Part shown: piece by piece, positions 22,034 through 30,992 of the stretch | Position numbering within the stretch: position 1 is the first letter of the stretch | Layout of the letters: each line of letters starts with the position of its first letter | NCBI GenBank assembly: GCA_032123335.1 | Contig: JAQBFN010000020.1 | Location: 7,540 to 71,539 of the forward strand | DNA length: 64,000 bases | Source of the DNA: Candidatus Micrarchaeota archaeon | GTDB taxonomy: Archaea; Micrarchaeota; Micrarchaeia; Anstonellales; Bilamarchaeaceae | Direction: 5' to 3' | Position numbers and translations under genes: made by a program | Notes under the pieces: model-generated | Told to the model about the DNA's origin: nothing | Database searches by the model: none | The model's input: the letters and a program-made list of their open reading frames with translations, nothing else

Positions 22034-22540
22034 ATGAATAAGGATTTCTTTGCCGGTGTTTTTGCCGGCGTAATCCTCTTTTTTGTTCTCTCATTCATGT
22101 TTCTTCCCGCATATTCCGTTTCCGTAATCTCTTCTCCCGGAGCCGAAGACGAAATCCTCTCCCTTATTGATTCCGCCCAGCACTCAATCTACATAGACAT
22201 GTACATACTCACTTCCGAAAAAGTTGTGGATGCACTAATCTCCGCCCACTACCGCGGCGTAGAAGTAAAGGTAATCCTTGAAGAGCGCACAGGTGCAAAC
22301 ACCCTTGCTTTCTCCCGCCTTGAAGGTGCAGGCACCCAGGTCTGCTGGGCCTCTGCAGTCTACAAGCTCTCCCACCCCAAACTCATAATTGTGGACAACC
22401 AGAAAGCCCTGGTAGGCTCCCACAACCTCTCCAACTCCGCCCTTAATTCCAACCGGGAAATCTCCCTCCTTGTCCAGGGAAACGTAGTTTCTACCCTCCT
22501 TTCCCTTTTCAATTCCGATTGGGATGCCTGTTCCATGTAG
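22034..22540 (+). CDS. Secreted phospholipase-D-family (HKD) nuclease/phosphodiesterase
   Basis: N-terminal TM/signal. Single HKD motif HPKLIIVDNQKALVGSHNLSNSA (HxKx4Dx6GSxN), as in Nuc-type PLD nucleases. Confidence 0.75.
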   Translation: MNKDFFAGVFAGVILFFVLSFMFLPAYSVSVISSPGAEDEILSLIDSAQHSIYIDMYILTSEKVVDALISAHYRGVEVKVILEERTGANTLAFSRLEGAGTQVCWASAVYKLSHPKLIIVDNQKALVGSHNLSNSALNSNREISLLVQGNVVSTLLSLFNSDWDACSM

Positions 22541-22591
22541 CCCACTTCTCTCGAAACTCCTCCTAAGCCTTATAAATATATTCTGTCAAAT

Positions 22592-25500
22592 ATGAATATG
22601 GCAGCAGTTGTAGAGCGGAGTAATTGGTGTAAATTACTGCTAGCCGTATTTATGCTCGTTTCCCTCTCTTTTTCCGCCGGATTCACCTCCGAAGACCTTT
22701 CCAATAAAATAACCTTCATTGACATCTCTGCCGTGGATGGAGTGGTAACCGCCAAGCTCACTGTGCTGACGATGGATGCCAGCATTGAGCACAACCAGTC
22801 CGCCCTCATTGAGGCGTTCAGGGAAGCAGAGAAAGGAAACCAGGCAACCGCAGAGCAAATCCTCGAGGAAGCAGGCCTGAACACTTTCTCAGGGTATTTA
22901 GGCAAAATCGAATCTGAAAGGGCCCCCATAGAAGGTGCAGACCTCAATTTCTACTACACAGTAAAAACCTACGATGATGACAACTATCCTGTCTTCACCA
23001 GGGAGCCAGTGCCCTTTTGTGCAGAGCCAGACCCGGTGCTAACTGATGAGGAGGGGATCGCAGAATGCGACCTCACCCCTTATTATGAAGGAATATACGA
23101 GGGTAAATGCACAGAAATTTCCGTGGTTTTCGGGGATTCAGTATTTGGCACCCAGCTAAATGACGAAACTTATCCCTATGTAGAAGAGATAGTTTACGTA
23201 TGTGACCAGGAAACAACCGCACTCGCAGTAATGCGCGAAGAGATAAGGACCATATTCTCAGACCAGGCCCAGAACCCCCTCTGCTTTGCATCAATGCTTT
23301 TGGGAGGAATGCTGCTCGCTTCAATGTTCTTTGCAGGAAGGAGCCCACTTTCCCTCCTTGATATCACAACACCCCTTCTCCCCAAGGCAAAAGCCATCTC
23401 CTACAGCGGCCTTAGGATGGGAGTCGGTTTCGGGCGCATCATGAAAGAGATGGGTGGCATGGGCGGGCCCGGAGGCATGATTGCATCCTCTTCCAAAGCA
23501 ACCACCGAGCGCATGCTCCGCTACCTCCGCTCCAAGGGCAAATACAGCAAGCGCATGGTTGACCTCATAATGAATTCCGGGGCCAATGAAGTCCTCAAGA
23601 TGCTTGCTCTCCGCTCACTTATTGCAGGAAAAAGCGAGCATTATGTAAAGGGCATTCTCGGGTTCAAGGGAAAAGCCCTGACTGAAGCAGATTTCCAGTC
23701 GGCCTATGCAAAGGTTCTTGCAGACCTTGATAAATCTTCAGATGCAAACGACCTGAATGAATACACGGTTAAGGGGTATGGTGCTAATGCACAGAAGCAG
23801 GGCCTCCACGATTCAGTGCTCCTCCTTGCCCAGATGAGCATGCTTAATGCAATGCAGCAGCAAGCCTTTATTGATTCTACCGGGGAAATACCTGCCTGGT
23901 TCAAGACCCCGCTTGGAAAAACCCTGGGAAGGCTCCCCTTCATCGGAACCCACATAATGGGAGGCACAGCATCCCTCTTTTTTGGTGGCAGGCACCTAGG
24001 CCGCTATTACAATAGTTTTGCAAGGGGAGCAGTGCGCGGAATAGGCGATGTGTTAACCCCCAAAGATAAGAAATTCAGCAAGCGCATCCAGATGGCTGTT
24101 GACGATGCGCGTGTAAAAGGCAAGAAGCCAGGATTTTTTGCAAACTGGGTTGCCCTCAAGGACAATGAGCGCCAGCTCGTAAAAATCTTTGACAATTTTG
24201 AATACGGTTCCGCACTCTACAAGCGCATGATGAAGGAAGCCCGCAAGGATGTCCTCAACTGGCTCGTGGGTACGGTAATTGCGAAATACGGAGGAAAGAT
24301 GGACCTCACCCGTGAAGAGGTTATAGAAATTGGGGAAAAGACTCCGGATGAATTGATGTTCCGCACCTTCAACAAGATTGAATTCTCAAAGATTGAAGGA
24401 GAGCTCCGTAGGCTCCTCTCAGATCCAGGCATGAGGGACCTCCAGAAAGCCCGCGCCCTGATGCGCCTTATGGAAGCATACGGAATAGCTTTCGACAAAC
24501 AGGGCGTTACTGATGCAATCCACATGCTCTCCAAAATAGACCGGGAAGACCCCAAATCCCCTGCAGCAGTAGGCATAATCGATCCGACCAACAGGTACGC
24601 AATGGATTGCCACAAGCTCATGCGCCTCCAGAGCTACCTACAACAGCAGTTCAACGTTGACAGGCTAACAGACATCAAGTCAGAGTACAAGGCTTTCCAG
24701 GACGGAGGAAAATTCTTCTTCACAGTAGGAAGGGAAACCCTCTCCCACGGCGCAAGCGATTTCACGTTTGGCACCTTTTTCCGCTCCAAGTACCGCGAGG
24801 CGCTTGAGAACTCCAAAGCAGGGGAAACCCGCCCCATCTCCATAAGGGACATCGCGAACTACTCTTTCCTCCGCATCGCAAACGAGCGCTGGGGACTAAT
24901 TGACCCAAATATGCCCGGCCTGGACAAGAAGCTCGTAGCAGTAATGAAGAACGCAGAAACCTGGCTCCGCTCCCTAGCAGATCCAGAGTTCCTCAGGCGC
25001 AACCCCTCGTACTCCAATCTTCTCAATTCCCTTTATGGCCCAAGTGCCCGTGCTGGTGTGAAAGACGACACCATGGACATAATGGAGCACGGTGCCGAAT
25101 ATGGCACAGCCAAGGGCGCGTGGCGCATGGACATGAAGGCCCACTGGAAAATTTACGGGGGCCCGATGGGCGGAGTAAAATCTTCTGTAGAAAACCAGGC
25201 ATTTGGGGAAGTTAACCGTGCCCACAATGTCCCCATGGCTATCCAGTCGATGATTGACAAGGGACTCAACTACAAGGATGCTTCAGGCAAGTACATGAAC
25301 ACTGTTGTTGAAAGCTACCTCTTCAAGCGCCTGAAGGGAATGATAGAGCAGGACAATCCAAATACCTATTTCACTTCCCAGGGTGAATTCGACCGCTTCA
25401 GGCAGCTCTGGGCCTCTTACAAATCACACATTGCCAGAGACAAAGGCATAGATGAAAGGAGTGTTACCGACAAGCAGGTTGCAGAATTCATAAAGAAGCC

Positions 25501-28219
25501 CCTTGGGATTGAGGAGCTTTCAAAGTCCAGCTGGATAAGGCTGAAGGAAGGCTCAGTTGCTCCGTTTATCCAGGAACACACTTTCAAGCTTGCCCAGGCC
25601 GACCGTGTAATAAACGCCAAATATTACATACGGCGTGGCGGGTACTGGGAGGAATTCGCGCCTGAGAAATTCCAAAAGCAGAAACCATTTATGGATGTTG
25701 TCCTGGGCAAGGACAGCGAAATCAGGAAAATGCTTGGGGACAAGGATTACATTCTTTCTGGAGGTGAGATACGTGGTGTATCCAACAAGCTCCTGAAGGA
25801 ATATGAAACTATTATGAATAACCTGGCGCGAGTACCCCAGGCAGATATTGACAAGCTTTTCGCGAAACTCAAAACAGGCGCTGCGAAAGACCCCAAGAAT
25901 TCTGAAGCCTATGCTGCAATGGCAGGATATGTGCTCAGTGGAAGGGCAGGAAGGGACCCAACTAAACTTGACCTTGCCGATAATTTCGGGACCCGTCTAG
26001 GTGAAAAAGTCCGCATGGAACTCATGCTCAAGGACTACCAGAATGCCAAAACCACGGAGCAGAAAAGGGCTGCCGCCAGGGACCTTATGAACTGGGCAAA
26101 AGCAGGAGGGCCTGGTGAGGAGCGCCACGTAAAAGTCGCCCTCCTCCTGTACACCCACGCAGACAGAACCGGGGACTGGAAAGATTTCAACAATTTTGAT
26201 GCAGTGAAGCTCATGCCCGGTGCAACTGCAGATCTAAAGCCTGGCAATGTCCAGGAGTACGAAAAGCTCACCGGGCTCAAAGGCTGGATCAAGAATGCAG
26301 TTAACCTCACCCAACACATCACAGACCCGATAAGCAAGAAGTTCAACCTTGGGCTTGAGCAGTTCATGCTTTCCACTTTCGGCAAGCAAATGAAGAGCGA
26401 ATATGAAGGAAGCCTTGTTTCAGAATACTTCAGGCAAACAGGAGGAAAATTCGCTGCTAAGCTTGCGGCAGGGGAATTCGGCAACCCGGATATGCGAGCC
26501 AACGCGGACCCAAGAATAAAGGAATTCAACCGCCTCATGGATTCATTTACCCGCTACCATGCAGTCTGGGACGAGACAATCACCCGTGACCCCAGGGGCA
26601 ACTCTTCAGCCATTGGGGGCGCATTCATTTACTCAGGTTTCTTCCACCACGGTCCTGCCATGGGATTCGGCCCCGGCATGTACAGGAGATGGTCGTCTGC
26701 AGGCCACCAGCAGCCCTGGACTACCTGGGGAGGATTCAAGGCAAATGTGCGTGAGCGCGCATGGGGCCTCCAGTTTGTCCCCCAGATGTTCAACTGGGCA
26801 GTGGGAACTCCTTTTGGTGTTGCCTACAGGACATACATAACCTCCAGATGGGGCTTCATGTCCAAGTATGACAGGAAATACAGCAGTGACGCCCCCCTAG
26901 TCACAGAAACCCCTGAAAAATACCGTGCAGGCGCAATTCAGAAATATGATGATCAACTGGCAGCCTATCAGGCTAAAATGATTGAGCAGATTGCTAAACT
27001 CCAGCAAAACAAGGGCTATTCAAACGAAGATGCATTTACCCAGGCCAACCAGGAGCTCAGGGGTGAAAGGCCAACTCCTCCTTCATTTGAGCTGGAGCGT
27101 GACACCCTCAGGCCCTATTCCGAAACCCACCCCAGGACTTCAGAAGGCCGCGCTGCAATGTTCAACTGGTTTTATGCTTCATTTGACCCCACATCAACGA
27201 ACCTCAAGCGTTTTGCATCAATCGCGGCCGCTGCACCCGGTTCACTTATGACTCCCCTGCACCTAATCAGAGGAGTGCAGAGCAATATCCTGAAGGGGGG
27301 CACTCCCGGGATAAACCGCTCTGACAGCAACCCATACTATGTAACTCCCGGAGGAATGAGGGGCCAGATGATAAAGGCTACTGGCCCCATGGTCAAGAGG
27401 CAGTATGGAGGAACTGAAATTGTTACCGGTGTAGTACGGTCCCATGAAGATATGTGGGCTTACCAGGCAGGGGTTAATGCTGTTTGGGGCAATGCAAACC
27501 CCGGCGCATCCTACATTGATTTCAGCCAGAGCCTACACCTGGACCCCCGCGCAGCCAACTATCTCCGCTATGAATCACGTTTCCGCCCATATATGCAGTA
27601 TGATGAATATGTGGACAAGCAATCCAAGCTCGGCCTTGTGAAGAGGGACATCGACCCATTCAAGCTCATGATGGCAAGGAATGCAGAAATCAGGCATTAT
27701 AAGTTCCCTGAGAACACTCTCTTCAGGTTCCTAAACCCAGCAGCATTCGCTATCTACAAAGCACAAGCATTTGTTACCAAGCGCGGGCAAACCCTTGTCA
27801 ATGCAAGGAACATGTATAGGGATGCAACAACCAATGTTTCAACCACCACCGGCGGGGCTATGCTTACAGGAGTAGGCAACTTTGCATCCAAGATAGGTGG
27901 CAAGGTAGGGACTATGATGCACCAGAATCTAGAGCTTGGATTCAGGAAGAGCATCCGCTACTGCCAGTCCTGCGGAGGGCCGAGGGTTGAAGGCGGCGTA
28001 TGCAATGCCTGCGCAAGAAAAACAAGATGTTCTTACGAAGGATGCGACCATATCGGGGACCCATCCCACAACCACTCCTGCGTACATGGAATACAGCGCA
28101 ACCTCCTGAATGAAGAATTTTCTCAAAAAGGCGGCTTCAAAGTTGCAGGAGAGAGGGCCTCCGGTTGGTATGGCCTAAGAAAAAGCCATTGGGGAACACT
28201 ATGGGGTAGAGAACCATGA
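22592..28219 (+). CDS. Giant (1875 aa) single-pass membrane/surface protein of unknown function
   Basis: Uninterrupted 5.6-kb ORF. N-terminal signal peptide, a ~220-aa N-terminal domain, then one TM (…CFASMLLGGMLLASMFFAG…). No P-loop or known catalytic motif. Trp/Gly-rich segment (aa ~1330-1420). C-terminal Cys/His cluster CQSCGG…CNAC…CSYEGCDH…HNHSCVH. Confidence 0.7.
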   Translation: MNMAAVVERSNWCKLLLAVFMLVSLSFSAGFTSEDLSNKITFIDISAVDGVVTAKLTVLTMDASIEHNQSALIEAFREAEKGNQATAEQILEEAGLNTFSGYLGKIESERAPIEGADLNFYYTVKTYDDDNYPVFTREPVPFCAEPDPVLTDEEGIAECDLTPYYEGIYEGKCTEISVVFGDSVFGTQLNDETYPYVEEIVYVCDQETTALAVMREEIRTIFSDQAQNPLCFASMLLGGMLLASMFFAGRSPLSLLDITTPLLPKAKAISYSGLRMGVGFGRIMKEMGGMGGPGGMIASSSKATTERMLRYLRSKGKYSKRMVDLIMNSGANEVLKMLALRSLIAGKSEHYVKGILGFKGKALTEADFQSAYAKVLADLDKSSDANDLNEYTVKGYGANAQKQGLHDSVLLLAQMSMLNAMQQQAFIDSTGEIPAWFKTPLGKTLGRLPFIGTHIMGGTASLFFGGRHLGRYYNSFARGAVRGIGDVLTPKDKKFSKRIQMAVDDARVKGKKPGFFANWVALKDNERQLVKIFDNFEYGSALYKRMMKEARKDVLNWLVGTVIAKYGGKMDLTREEVIEIGEKTPDELMFRTFNKIEFSKIEGELRRLLSDPGMRDLQKARALMRLMEAYGIAFDKQGVTDAIHMLSKIDREDPKSPAAVGIIDPTNRYAMDCHKLMRLQSYLQQQFNVDRLTDIKSEYKAFQDGGKFFFTVGRETLSHGASDFTFGTFFRSKYREALENSKAGETRPISIRDIANYSFLRIANERWGLIDPNMPGLDKKLVAVMKNAETWLRSLADPEFLRRNPSYSNLLNSLYGPSARAGVKDDTMDIMEHGAEYGTAKGAWRMDMKAHWKIYGGPMGGVKSSVENQAFGEVNRAHNVPMAIQSMIDKGLNYKDASGKYMNTVVESYLFKRLKGMIEQDNPNTYFTSQGEFDRFRQLWASYKSHIARDKGIDERSVTDKQVAEFIKKPLGIEELSKSSWIRLKEGSVAPFIQEHTFKLAQADRVINAKYYIRRGGYWEEFAPEKFQKQKPFMDVVLGKDSEIRKMLGDKDYILSGGEIRGVSNKLLKEYETIMNNLARVPQADIDKLFAKLKTGAAKDPKNSEAYAAMAGYVLSGRAGRDPTKLDLADNFGTRLGEKVRMELMLKDYQNAKTTEQKRAAARDLMNWAKAGGPGEERHVKVALLLYTHADRTGDWKDFNNFDAVKLMPGATADLKPGNVQEYEKLTGLKGWIKNAVNLTQHITDPISKKFNLGLEQFMLSTFGKQMKSEYEGSLVSEYFRQTGGKFAAKLAAGEFGNPDMRANADPRIKEFNRLMDSFTRYHAVWDETITRDPRGNSSAIGGAFIYSGFFHHGPAMGFGPGMYRRWSSAGHQQPWTTWGGFKANVRERAWGLQFVPQMFNWAVGTPFGVAYRTYITSRWGFMSKYDRKYSSDAPLVTETPEKYRAGAIQKYDDQLAAYQAKMIEQIAKLQQNKGYSNEDAFTQANQELRGERPTPPSFELERDTLRPYSETHPRTSEGRAAMFNWFYASFDPTSTNLKRFASIAAAAPGSLMTPLHLIRGVQSNILKGGTPGINRSDSNPYYVTPGGMRGQMIKATGPMVKRQYGGTEIVTGVVRSHEDMWAYQAGVNAVWGNANPGASYIDFSQSLHLDPRAANYLRYESRFRPYMQYDEYVDKQSKLGLVKRDIDPFKLMMARNAEIRHYKFPENTLFRFLNPAAFAIYKAQAFVTKRGQTLVNARNMYRDATTNVSTTTGGAMLTGVGNFASKIGGKVGTMMHQNLELGFRKSIRYCQSCGGPRVEGGVCNACARKTRCSYEGCDHIGDPSHNHSCVHGIQRNLLNEEFSQKGGFKVAGERASGWYGLRKSHWGTLWGREP

Positions 28220-30588
28220 ACAAACTGCACATATTCATACTGATTGCAATTCTGCTATTCGGATGCACAGAAATGGAAAACTATTATGAGGGGGAAGGGA
28301 AAGAAATAAACCGCACAGAACCCCTGGATATGGACAACCTGATTTCCTGTGACACCACAGACCATGATTGCATCTGCATGGTCTGCGAAAACAGTGATTC
28401 ATTTGAATTCACCAATCCCTTCAACCGTTTTTACAGCATAGACCTCAGGGAAGGAGAATGCAGATTCGAAACAGATTGCACAGAGGAAAAATTCCTGGAA
28501 ATCTCCACCCCGGATTTTGAGAATTTCCTTTTTGGCCAGGAGCAGGTGCGCTTCTTCATGCTTGGCCAGGGCTCGAATTTTGCAGAGTTCGCAGACGCAA
28601 ACCGCTACTGCAATAACTCCCTTAGGCTCGCAGTCCGCTGGCTCTATTCCACTGATGGATTTGAGTATCCTGCCCCCCAGCCCGAGCGCGCAGAATGCTT
28701 CCTTGAAAAGGACACGCTTCCCGTTTACCTCCTTTACAGCGAAGGAGAAGCAATGAGCGTCCCCCGTGCTGCTTACATCGCATCGCAATTCCAGGAATCC
28801 GGCCCCGTAATCCTTACTTCTGAATTCGATTTCGACCCCTCCAACTTCCAACAGCTTAACGATGCAATAGACCAGGCTATCGCAATGAAATCCGCTTGCC
28901 CTGATTGCCTGATTGCAATCGCACCCAAATTCAAATACAACTACAGCGAAGTTGATGGCGAATATTACGGCTATAACCACACCTACGATGCAATCGATTA
29001 CATTTTCGAGACCCAGGAGGCCCGTGACAGCATAGCCCTTGTTGCCATAGGCCTCAATTCCCATTACACCCAAAACTGTGCAGGCGCTTCCCTCCTTTGG
29101 GATGGGATGGCTTACTCCAAATACATAATGCAGCAGCATGGAAAGCCCACGCTCTGGGCATATGTTCTTCTTGATGATAGGCAGCCCAGTGCAGCCCCCT
29201 ATGGTTCCCTTGAATACTGCGAATGGAATTCAGATGAGATCACACGAACATACGGTGACCTCTACAAATACATCCCCTCTTTCGTAAACAATGGGGTAAT
29301 CGGAATCGCCCCATATTCCCTTTACGGTCTGGGTACGGGTCCGCTTGAATGCGCAGATTGCGGAATGATGGCAGTGGATGGAACAACTTATCCACAGCAC
29401 GCAGAATGGTTTTCCCTCTGCCAGGTTTACTATACCGGGAGGGGAGTAATCCCAGTGGTTTTCTCCCCCAGCCCATGCGCTGACTGCTCATTTGCAAACA
29501 ACTTCAACATGTTCCAGCTTTCCGACTCTTACTACGGCTCCGGCCCAACCATTGAGCAATACCAGGACAAGGCAGTTGCTCCCTTCTCCACATTCTATAG
29601 GTGCAACGGACAGCTCATGAGTGAGGTACCCGAAGAGATAACCCTCCCTTCTTACTCTGCGGGCGATAATGAATGCAACTGGTACCCCGAGCTGGATATT
29701 TTCTCAGACCTCCGAGACTCCGACCCTGTGCTTGCCCGTGCAATAACCTGGGGTGAAACCGGCTTAAATGATGATACTGAAGGCCCAGATGGCGACATGT
29801 GTGAAGCTTCTGATGTTGATTTTGGCCTGGCCAGCTTTCCTGAATGCGTAACCGACCCAGAGGGAAGATGTGGAACACAGTGCGCCCCGACAAACTGGCG
29901 CAAGCATTCCCTGGGCCTCATGCAAATCCATGTATATCCCCAGCAAATCTGGGCCGATTATCCCCCTGGCTCTGGAACAGAGCAGGAGGCTCTCTGGTGC
30001 GCTGGAAATGCCGTAGATGGATTCAACCCATTCAACAAAGCCCACAACGCATGCGTAGGGACCGCAATCATCCTGGAATATCTCCAGGTGGGAAAATCCA
30101 AGGTTTCAAGCAATGAGCAGCAGCTCGGGCTCGCCTACCTAAAAACCACATATGGGGAAGACAGCGATGAATACCTCAACATGAAGAACGCATTCATTGT
30201 TTTCATTTCTTCTTATTACTACAACGGGTTCTCAGCCTTCCAGAACGGAATAGATTCCTGGATATATGAATACTCCAAGCAGAGCGGGATAACCGATGAA
30301 TACTGCGAAGTTGCAGCCGGCTCAGACCCCTGCTGCAACAGCGATGGCACAGCCAAGAGCAACAACTGCTGTGGAGTAGAGAACTTCATAAACTACTACC
30401 AGTCCTGCAAGCTCCCCACACTTTCCAACCAGCAGGCAGGGGCATACGGGCTTAGGCTCCTCGGCCACTACAAAGCCCTTCTAAAATGCGAAAAATACGA
30501 TGAGGCCCAGCACGAGCAGAACCTCATAGACTACCTTGAATCCTATGGTGAATCATTAGAAGAACCAGAGGAAGCGGAAGAAAGCTAG
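28216..30588 (+). CDS. Cys-rich lipoprotein with lytic-transglycosylase (SLT/lysozyme-like) motifs
   Basis: Lipobox LFGC. About 50 Cys. ITWGETGLN…SLGLMQIHVY…KAHNACVG…AIILEYLQ corresponds to SLT motifs I-III (E-S/T, GLMQ, AYNxG). 4-bp overlap with the giant gene. Confidence 0.55.
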   Translation: MNKLHIFILIAILLFGCTEMENYYEGEGKEINRTEPLDMDNLISCDTTDHDCICMVCENSDSFEFTNPFNRFYSIDLREGECRFETDCTEEKFLEISTPDFENFLFGQEQVRFFMLGQGSNFAEFADANRYCNNSLRLAVRWLYSTDGFEYPAPQPERAECFLEKDTLPVYLLYSEGEAMSVPRAAYIASQFQESGPVILTSEFDFDPSNFQQLNDAIDQAIAMKSACPDCLIAIAPKFKYNYSEVDGEYYGYNHTYDAIDYIFETQEARDSIALVAIGLNSHYTQNCAGASLLWDGMAYSKYIMQQHGKPTLWAYVLLDDRQPSAAPYGSLEYCEWNSDEITRTYGDLYKYIPSFVNNGVIGIAPYSLYGLGTGPLECADCGMMAVDGTTYPQHAEWFSLCQVYYTGRGVIPVVFSPSPCADCSFANNFNMFQLSDSYYGSGPTIEQYQDKAVAPFSTFYRCNGQLMSEVPEEITLPSYSAGDNECNWYPELDIFSDLRDSDPVLARAITWGETGLNDDTEGPDGDMCEASDVDFGLASFPECVTDPEGRCGTQCAPTNWRKHSLGLMQIHVYPQQIWADYPPGSGTEQEALWCAGNAVDGFNPFNKAHNACVGTAIILEYLQVGKSKVSSNEQQLGLAYLKTTYGEDSDEYLNMKNAFIVFISSYYYNGFSAFQNGIDSWIYEYSKQSGITDEYCEVAAGSDPCCNSDGTAKSNNCCGVENFINYYQSCKLPTLSNQQAGAYGLRLLGHYKALLKCEKYDEAQHEQNLIDYLESYGESLEEPEEAEES

Positions 30589-30992
30589 TTCTTCCTTCCA
30601 AACCCTAATTTCCTTTTCCAGTAGAAGAATGTTCTCCTGGGCATCATGAGCTCCTTCATTTTCTCATCATTGCTCGTTTTCTTGGAAATAACCGCCCTAA
30701 TCTTCTTCTCATCATATTTCTGCGGCCTTCCCCTCTTGCACTTCCTTACAATGACCTCTACGCTCTTCCCCAGGCTCCCCATCACTTTCCTTGGGATAGT
30801 CCTGGAAATGCCTTCGCTTATGTATAATTTCTTTATTCTTGTCTCATTAAGCAGGATCACAAACATCATCACATTAGGCTTGGTTTTCAAAAAGAATGAT
30901 TCTGCATCCTTGTTATCAGTTATCTGCCTATAGATGTTATCCCTGGTTCCTTTGAGCTCGATTGCGCTAAGTTCTTTTGAACAATCCGGCAT
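30585..30992 (-). CDS. Small HTH-domain protein (possible transposase-N-terminus-like or regulator)
   Basis: …EGISRTIPRKVMGS…KRGRPQKY… resembles homeodomain-like HTH modules. No catalytic domain. Confidence 0.3.
   Translation of the reverse strand: MPDCSKELSAIELKGTRDNIYRQITDNKDAESFFLKTKPNVMMFVILLNETRIKKLYISEGISRTIPRKVMGSLGKSVEVIVRKCKRGRPQKYDEKKIRAVISKKTSNDEKMKELMMPRRTFFYWKRKLGFGRKN

Follow-up and report, generated by a model that had tools for sequence, protein, structure and literature searches.

In bacteria, the FimV/HubP proteins combine a small extracytoplasmic domain and a single transmembrane (TM) helix with a very large cytoplasmic scaffold, and they exceed 1500 amino acids in length. 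Among the trans-envelope machines, type IV secretion systems are encoded together with VirB1, a specialised lytic transglycosylase, and PLD-family nucleases of the Nuc/NucT type are associated with conjugative plasmids and with competence in Helicobacter. The Micrarchaeota and other DPANN archaea have ultra-small cells, and many of them are host-dependent. Cryo-ET shows the envelope and the contact machinery of these cells, but to our knowledge the proteins of this machinery are largely unidentified. For the Pacearchaeota and Woesearchaeota, archaea without murein, large extracellular proteins with an SLT (murein lytic transglycosylase) domain have been described as fam00969, for which roles in the binding or degradation of bacterial walls or in cell-cell interaction were proposed (PMC8204110). 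The SPEARE proteins of Nanohaloarchaeota are mostly extracytoplasmic and contain protease, laminin-G/adhesion and toxin-like domains in addition to intracellular restriction-enzyme domains (PMC6642349).

The window analysed here, 64,000 nucleotides of contig JAQBFN010000020.1 from a Candidatus Micrarchaeota archaeon, contains a giant ORF of 1875 amino acids on the plus strand (22592..28219), which was identified by its uninterrupted reading frame, its orthologues and a selection test. It starts with ATG and ends with TGA, and its 1875 codons are free of interruptions. The first-pass annotation had described an intact ORF of 5.6 kb without internal stops, and the frameshifts or stops which it had named as evidence to the contrary did not occur. 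The codon usage, which it had proposed to check, matches that of the neighbouring genes (GC3 of 0.57 versus 0.59; r = 0.72 for RSCU). In comparison to an orthologue with 80% identity, pN/pS was 0.11-0.40 in each 150-codon window, with an overall dN of 0.12, a dS of 0.85 and a dN/dS of about 0.14. Purifying selection acts over the entire length of the ORF, and the gene is real, with native codon usage. Full-length colinear orthologues were identified at 39-88% identity, and more distant relatives down to 17%. Because of these colinear orthologues, the low pN/pS throughout and the neighbour-like codon usage, the ORF is neither a product of chance nor an artefact of assembly or fusion.

The N-terminus of the protein is conserved across the family as M..W.KLLL...SLSF, which supports a start at position 22592 or 22598. 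A shorter NCBI gene model (P0001, 1855 aa) is without support, since the conserved N-terminus argues for 22592/22598. A TATA-like box, TTATAAATA (22570..22578, plus strand), was recognised by reading the sequence and ends 13 nt ahead of the first ATG. This short distance suggests that the giant gene may have its own promoter and give rise to a leaderless mRNA or one with a very short leader. The second ATG, at 22598, presumably suits the canonical archaeal spacing between TATA box and start better.

The family to which the giant protein belongs comprises at least 84 clusters when grouped at 50% identity, and nearly all of its members have 1500-2000 amino acids. All are annotated as hypothetical and have already been deposited as 'hypothetical protein'; the function proposed for them below is a putative one. 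Every named member derives from a MAG of Micrarchaeota, Micrarchaeia or Bilamarchaeaceae, so that the family is, as found so far, confined to Micrarchaeota MAGs. The gene is present in every sampled Micrarchaeota lineage and nowhere else, in a single copy in each locus fetched, and a literature search found the family nowhere described. Its product is among the largest proteins in these small genomes and is strongly constrained. The gene order PLD, giant, partner and, further downstream, Top6A, Top6B and KH is retained even at about 17% identity, and the giant gene sits in a core-genome setting among translation and replication genes. Neither the partner gene downstream nor the restriction of the family to one archaeal lineage was part of the first-pass annotation.

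A known family could not be assigned to the giant protein. Pfam searches with the whole protein and with five segments found no family at E <= 10, and nothing matched in NCBIfam, PHROGs (best match at E = 0.27) or PADLOC. Neither the single sequence nor either of two family profiles found anything significant among PDB sequences, and for 28 divergent members Pfam and NCBIfam returned weak zinc-ribbon matches only. P-loop NTPase families were absent from the giant protein and 27 divergent relatives in Pfam and NCBIfam, and the pattern [AG]xxxxGK[ST] was not found in the giant protein, in agreement with the earlier statement that it contains no Walker motif. Matches to phiC31 integrase (E about 0.05-0.1, PDB sequence search), to IncA (E = 0.02, PDB profile search) and to DUF5457 (E = 0.038, Pfam) were rejected as noise.

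The great length of the protein and its absent annotation would suit a viral, proviral or mobile gene, coding for example for a tail fibre, a tape measure or a conjugation protein, or else an assembly or fusion artefact; also, the PLD-family neighbour generically matches DrmC-type defence models. However, no match to a viral or tail-fibre family, as which the first-pass annotation had thought its reading could fail, was obtained from PHROGs, BFVD, IMG/VR or phage records. The N-terminal half found nothing in BFVD by Foldseek at E <= 1e-3, and an IMG/VR scan, tblastn against phage records and a plasmid search revealed no relative; PADLOC was likewise without a match. In addition, the gene is embedded in conserved housekeeping synteny, its codon usage is native, purifying selection acts throughout, and no fewer than 25 independent MAG loci contain colinear orthologues. 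Within the sensitivity of the searches, a viral, mobile or artefactual origin is already refuted, and the probability left to it is negligible.

The protein begins with a signal peptide-like segment (aa 1-31; 22592..22684, plus strand), which was recognised by hydropathy and is conserved in the family. Its hydrophobic core comprises aa 10-34, and a signal was found in most family members, which bears out the signal-like N-terminus noted before. An acidic ectodomain follows (aa 32-228; 22685..23275, plus strand; net charge about -29), with conserved cysteines at positions 143, 159, 173 and 204. In the model, a beta-hairpin and helices precede an Ig-like beta-sandwich, and by fold comparison this N-terminal domain matches Ig-like surface domains; a beta-sandwich of the BIG/MG/FN3 kind is thus predicted. 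With the BIG domains of invasin/intimin and the macroglobulin MG domains it shares just 5-19% sequence identity, and aa 1-253 have no Pfam match with a cutoff as loose as E <= 10. Those systems contain a tandem array of such domains, whereas the giant protein has one.

The single TM helix, PLCFASMLLGGMLLASMFFAG (aa 229-249; 23276..23338, plus strand), was assigned by hydropathy and the family alignment. It is the one further hydrophobic segment, so that the single TM behind an N-terminal domain of about 220 amino acids was correctly recognised at first. The small residues G239, A243, S244 and G249 are invariant, and Cys231 is located at the outer end. The helix is rich in small residues and probably packs against other helices. 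Topology statistics were based on 37 members with the TM motif from 48 examined. Exactly two hydrophobic segments are present in 32 of the 37. Averaged over all 37, there are about four cysteines in the N-terminal domain of about 190 amino acids, about one in the body of about 1500 amino acids and about five (4-8) in the last 110. The residues flanking the TM carry a mean charge of -0.6 N-terminally and +2.2 C-terminally. The giant protein would therefore be a bitopic type-I protein with an N-out/C-in orientation; the bulk is placed in the cytoplasm because of the asymmetry in cysteines, the charges flanking the TM, the Ig-like model of the N-terminal domain and a body which is non-repetitive and not fibre-like. 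Disulfides may be formed in the ectodomain.

The first-pass annotation had left a choice between a huge exposed surface fibre and a huge cytoplasmic scaffold. The evidence speaks for the second of these and disfavours the exposed fibre. A surface fibre or adhesin like the other giant surface proteins of DPANN, of which SPEARE is a mostly extracytoplasmic example (PMC6642349), would account for the N-terminal signal peptide and the Ig-like domain. The Ig-like part, however, spans just about 200 amino acids and lies ahead of the TM, while the chain behind the TM is basic, almost free of Cys and ends in a Cys4 zinc ribbon. Moreover, repeats and adhesion domains were not found, and helices predominate in what could be modelled of the body, which makes the exposed fibre very improbable. 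Like SPEARE, the giant protein is a giant, lineage-typical, bitopic DPANN membrane protein whose domains lie on either side of the membrane. Its distribution of mass is the inverse, and its recognisable domains are the Ig-like ectodomain and the zinc ribbon only; with a bulk that is apparently cytoplasmic and none of the SPEARE domains found in Pfam, it does not fall into the SPEARE group.

Directly behind the TM, a juxtamembrane peptide, GRSPLSLLDITTPLLPKAK (aa 249-267; 23336..23392, plus strand), was identified by conservation in the alignment. It shows the highest conservation of the giant protein, with 3.8 bits per column, and P252, D257, P261 and P264 are near-invariant in the broad family. 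In the predicted structure, pLDDT is below 50 over aa 249-279. Strong conservation together with low model confidence would be as expected for a docking motif. A GGMGGPGGM tract, reported earlier to follow the TM, is indeed present at aa 288-296, but is limited to the closest relatives. The cytoplasmic body (aa 268-1250; 23393..26341, plus strand) was delimited by models, a repeat test and a fold search. Its core, at aa ~530-1000, was modelled at a pLDDT of about 90, and the modelled parts are mostly alpha-helical. The body is slightly basic and contains neither internal repeats (18% hhalign probability for the best pair) nor fibre-like features. For the model of the N-terminal half, Foldseek found no fold match in the PDB or BFVD at E <= 1e-3. 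In total, about 1600 amino acids lie beyond the TM, non-repetitive and poor in Cys, and end in a zinc ribbon-like cluster.

The layout of a single TM, small outside and large inside, and the size class of more than 1500 amino acids are shared with FimV/HubP, as an analogy only. LysM, acidic repeats and the TPR/FimV C-terminal motif were not found by Pfam and the repeat test. Similarity to FimV/HubP in sequence or fold was not detected, and the body is slightly basic and non-repetitive, with a zinc ribbon at the end.

The most conserved C-terminal region (aa 1251-1745; 26342..27826, plus strand) was defined from family alignments and contains WDETITRDPRGNSS, FHHGPA, NWAxGxPF..TSRWGF, GNANPGxSY and DPRAANYLRYESRFRPY. 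Arginines R1332, R1413 and R1685 are invariant. A Trp-rich block, also pointed out in the first-pass annotation, comprises aa 1367-1422 (26690-26857, plus strand), with 6 W in 56 amino acids compared to 1.4% W overall. The first half of the block falls in a variable region; conservation is seen in the second half, NWAxGxPF..YRT..TSRWG[FY]. Since this Trp/Gly-rich stretch would lie on the cytoplasmic side, the carbohydrate binding suggested for it is unlikely, and the membrane association suggested alongside is a candidate role only. For the C-terminal half, AF2 gave a mean pLDDT of 50.7, mostly below 50, from an alignment of 27 sequences. An enzymatic fold, or one associated with the membrane, might be concealed in the poorly modelled C-terminal ~600 amino acids and would alter the picture.

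At the C-terminus, a zinc-ribbon-like Cys/His cluster was identified (aa 1791-1832; 27962..28087, plus strand) on the basis of conserved CxxC pairs and of weak, mostly sub-threshold matches. The cluster had been seen before, with spacers of x8, x5 and x8; these are corrected here to x7, x5 and x5, which gives the pattern CQSCGG-x7-CNAC-x5-CSYEGCDH-x5-HNHSCVH. In relatives with as little as 17-22% identity, the conservation of C1791, C1794, C1804 and C1807 is still at least 90%. The first CxxC-x9-CxxC is kept family-wide, and the second Cys/His cluster is clade-specific. Two CxxC knuckles with a short loop and conservation throughout the family are thus present, as in zinc ribbons. The giant protein itself matches DZR_2 in Pfam weakly (E = 0.13), Zn_ribbon_3 was found in 2 of 28 relatives (best E 0.0024) and zf-tcix in one of the 28 (E 8.8e-5), and the PDB sequence search returned sub-threshold matches of the cluster to bL32, Nop10 and rubredoxin. 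The knot is still predicted to bind zinc, as had been suggested.

Immediately downstream, a partner gene coding for 790 amino acids was identified (28216..30588, plus strand), the start of which overlaps the stop of the giant ORF by 4 nt (ATGA). This overlap suggests that the two genes are translationally coupled and co-expressed. Of 27 informative loci, 25 have the partner directly beside the giant gene; the partner is absent from the 19.5-kb locus examined for the divergent relative L035 and from the 868 nt available downstream in L021. Its product is lipoprotein-like, with a lipobox-like signal, LLFGC17, and contains 33 mostly invariant cysteines; it is predicted to be extracellular. On the minus strand, a conserved basic protein of 135 amino acids (30585..30992), noted from its context, is convergent with the partner gene.

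The partner contains a divergent SLT/GH23 lysozyme-like domain (29743..30228, plus strand), which was recognised by motifs, sub-threshold Pfam matches and hhalign. The order of its elements is a catalytic-Glu helix (E514), a Cys-rich insertion of about 40 amino acids, GLMQ, NPxxxxNxxxGTxxL and SYYYNG. E514 is invariant in 26 sequences of the partner family and aligns with the catalytic E-S of the five E. coli SLT domains from Slt70, EmtA, MltC, MltD and MltF. As in SLT domains, the Glu stands in an E-[ST] pair at the end of the first helix and is followed in order by the counterparts of GLMQ, [DN]PxxN..G..YL and AYNxG (partner aa 567-570, 603-623 and 666-671). When aligned to the five E. coli domains by hhalign, the intact domain reached a probability of 69% (P = 4.5e-5, compared to P = 0.29 for a control region), and without the insertion 93% (P = 3.2e-7), with 74 columns in register. 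In Pfam, the partner protein of the window has no match; 5 of 26 partner relatives match SLT (PF01464) at the position of the domain, with a best score of 20.6 bits (E = 3.3e-4), and no member of the partner family reaches the gathering threshold of 21.3 bits. An enzymatic activity of the partner in glycan cleavage is therefore proposed with caution from its motifs. Since the GLMQ segment is missing in the deep-branching homologue L034, glycan cleavage cannot be a universal function of the pair. An extracellular SLT-type domain in DPANN is shared with fam00969. Unlike there, the SLT-like domain is located on a separate lipoprotein of 790 amino acids, is sub-threshold in Pfam and is split by a Cys-rich insertion; the lineage is Micrarchaeota, and the giant protein itself would be mostly intracellular.

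Upstream of the giant gene, a single-HKD protein of the PLD family (Nuc/NucT-like) with an N-terminal signal-anchor is encoded (22034..22540, plus strand). It belongs to Pfam PLDc_2 (E = 1.2e-24; 87 bits, with a cutoff of 27 bits) and contains the motif HPKLIIVD...GSHN, which corresponds to HxK(x)4D(x)6GSxN. The assignment is made at the family level only, because the NCBIfam equivalog models for NucT and DrmC score under their cutoffs. In 13 of 28 loci, drawn from divergent branches, the giant gene is preceded by an HKD ORF, a frequent but not obligate neighbour. A purine nucleoside phosphorylase (PNP) gene is also found near the giant gene, in a part of the family. Like the VirB1 and Nuc systems, the locus encodes an SLT-type enzyme and often a signal-anchored HKD protein beside a large membrane protein; unlike them, it is devoid of secretion ATPases, pilins and channels, has housekeeping neighbours and shows no relation to plasmids or phages.

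A further reading, analogous to such accessories of type IV secretion and competence, is nucleic-acid or nucleotide acquisition. Here an outward nuclease and a wall-cutting SLT-like enzyme would act together with an oligomerised giant protein, whose zinc ribbon and Arg-rich conserved blocks would handle DNA or nucleotides inside. The signal-anchored HKD protein directly upstream in those 13 loci, the SLT-like partner, the C-terminal zinc ribbon with the three invariant arginines and the nearby PNP gene are in line with this, and a TM rich in small residues is compatible with oligomerisation. But an ATPase, a pilin, a channel or a DNA-binding domain was found neither in the giant protein nor in its neighbours, each chain has one TM, more than half of the loci lack the nuclease, and the PNP gene lies nearby in some family members only. 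We consider acquisition quite improbable.

The reading to which we give the highest weight, with a probability of roughly 0.4, is that the giant protein is a lineage-specific transmembrane hub, by which a glycan-cleaving partner outside the cell would be tied to a large scaffold in the cytoplasm. Outside, it would expose a small, disulfide-stabilised Ig-like domain; inside, it would carry the invariant juxtamembrane peptide, about 1600 amino acids of unique sequence and a terminal zinc ribbon. The ectodomain may hold or position the Cys-rich lipoprotein at the outer face of the membrane, a contact to which the coupling of the genes is the sole link, and an outward-facing PLD nuclease would be encoded alongside in about half of the lineages. 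The cytoplasmic body may join this outer site to cytoplasmic components via the juxtamembrane motif, the C-terminal blocks and the zinc ribbon. From such a positioning and such a linkage it would follow that the module couples extracellular processing of glycans or the envelope to an intracellular scaffold. The processing could be foraging on, or contact with, the walls of other cells, or a remodelling of the own envelope. For the large extracellular SLT-domain proteins of other DPANN an action on bacterial walls was proposed (PMC8204110), and a Micrarchaeota MAG has been noted to encode an extracellular GH23 (PMC8561730).

Counting against a hub of this kind, the strong conservation, the single copy and the core-genome position resemble a housekeeping component more than a host-interaction factor. 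A housekeeping scaffold or landmark like FimV/HubP would organise an internal process, such as the division site, envelope or S-layer biogenesis, or the tethering of nucleoid or ribosomes, and the glycan-cleaving motif of the partner would then be secondary or vestigial. Such a role would agree with the place of the gene among translation and replication genes, the very deep synteny, strong purifying selection over the whole length, one copy per fetched locus and a protein bulk which appears to be cytoplasmic. It would also agree with the presence of the gene in Anstonellales/Bilamarchaeaceae, whose metabolism has been described as more complete, and with the degenerate SLT-like segment in a deep branch. 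On the other hand, an outward orientation is indicated by the Cys-rich extracellular lipoprotein, which is coupled to the giant gene in a near-obligate manner, and by the extracellular nuclease, which is often a neighbour, and neither homology nor fold similarity to known cytoskeletal or landmark proteins was found. A housekeeping role is a candidate, but rather unlikely.

In a more far-reaching form of the transmembrane hub, the giant protein, the partner and the facultative surface nuclease would constitute an unrecognised, NTPase-free trans-envelope apparatus for cell contact or feeding, which would define the Micrarchaeota. The outside module would breach or graze foreign cell walls and DNA, and the 1600-aa cytoplasmic body, with a fold that is novel at least in the modelled N-terminal half, would be the intracellular base. 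We regard this as speculative and clearly unlikely. If true, it would supply protein identities for the attachment structures of DPANN, the components of which are currently unknown (PMC11420986).

The giant protein shows no detectable relation to known families or, for the modelled half, to solved or viral structures. The pairing with the partner offers a concrete two-protein module by which the cell surface of Micrarchaeota might be linked to the interior. Even in a housekeeping role, the giant protein would define its lineage as a component of the cell's biology and would probably yield new folds.

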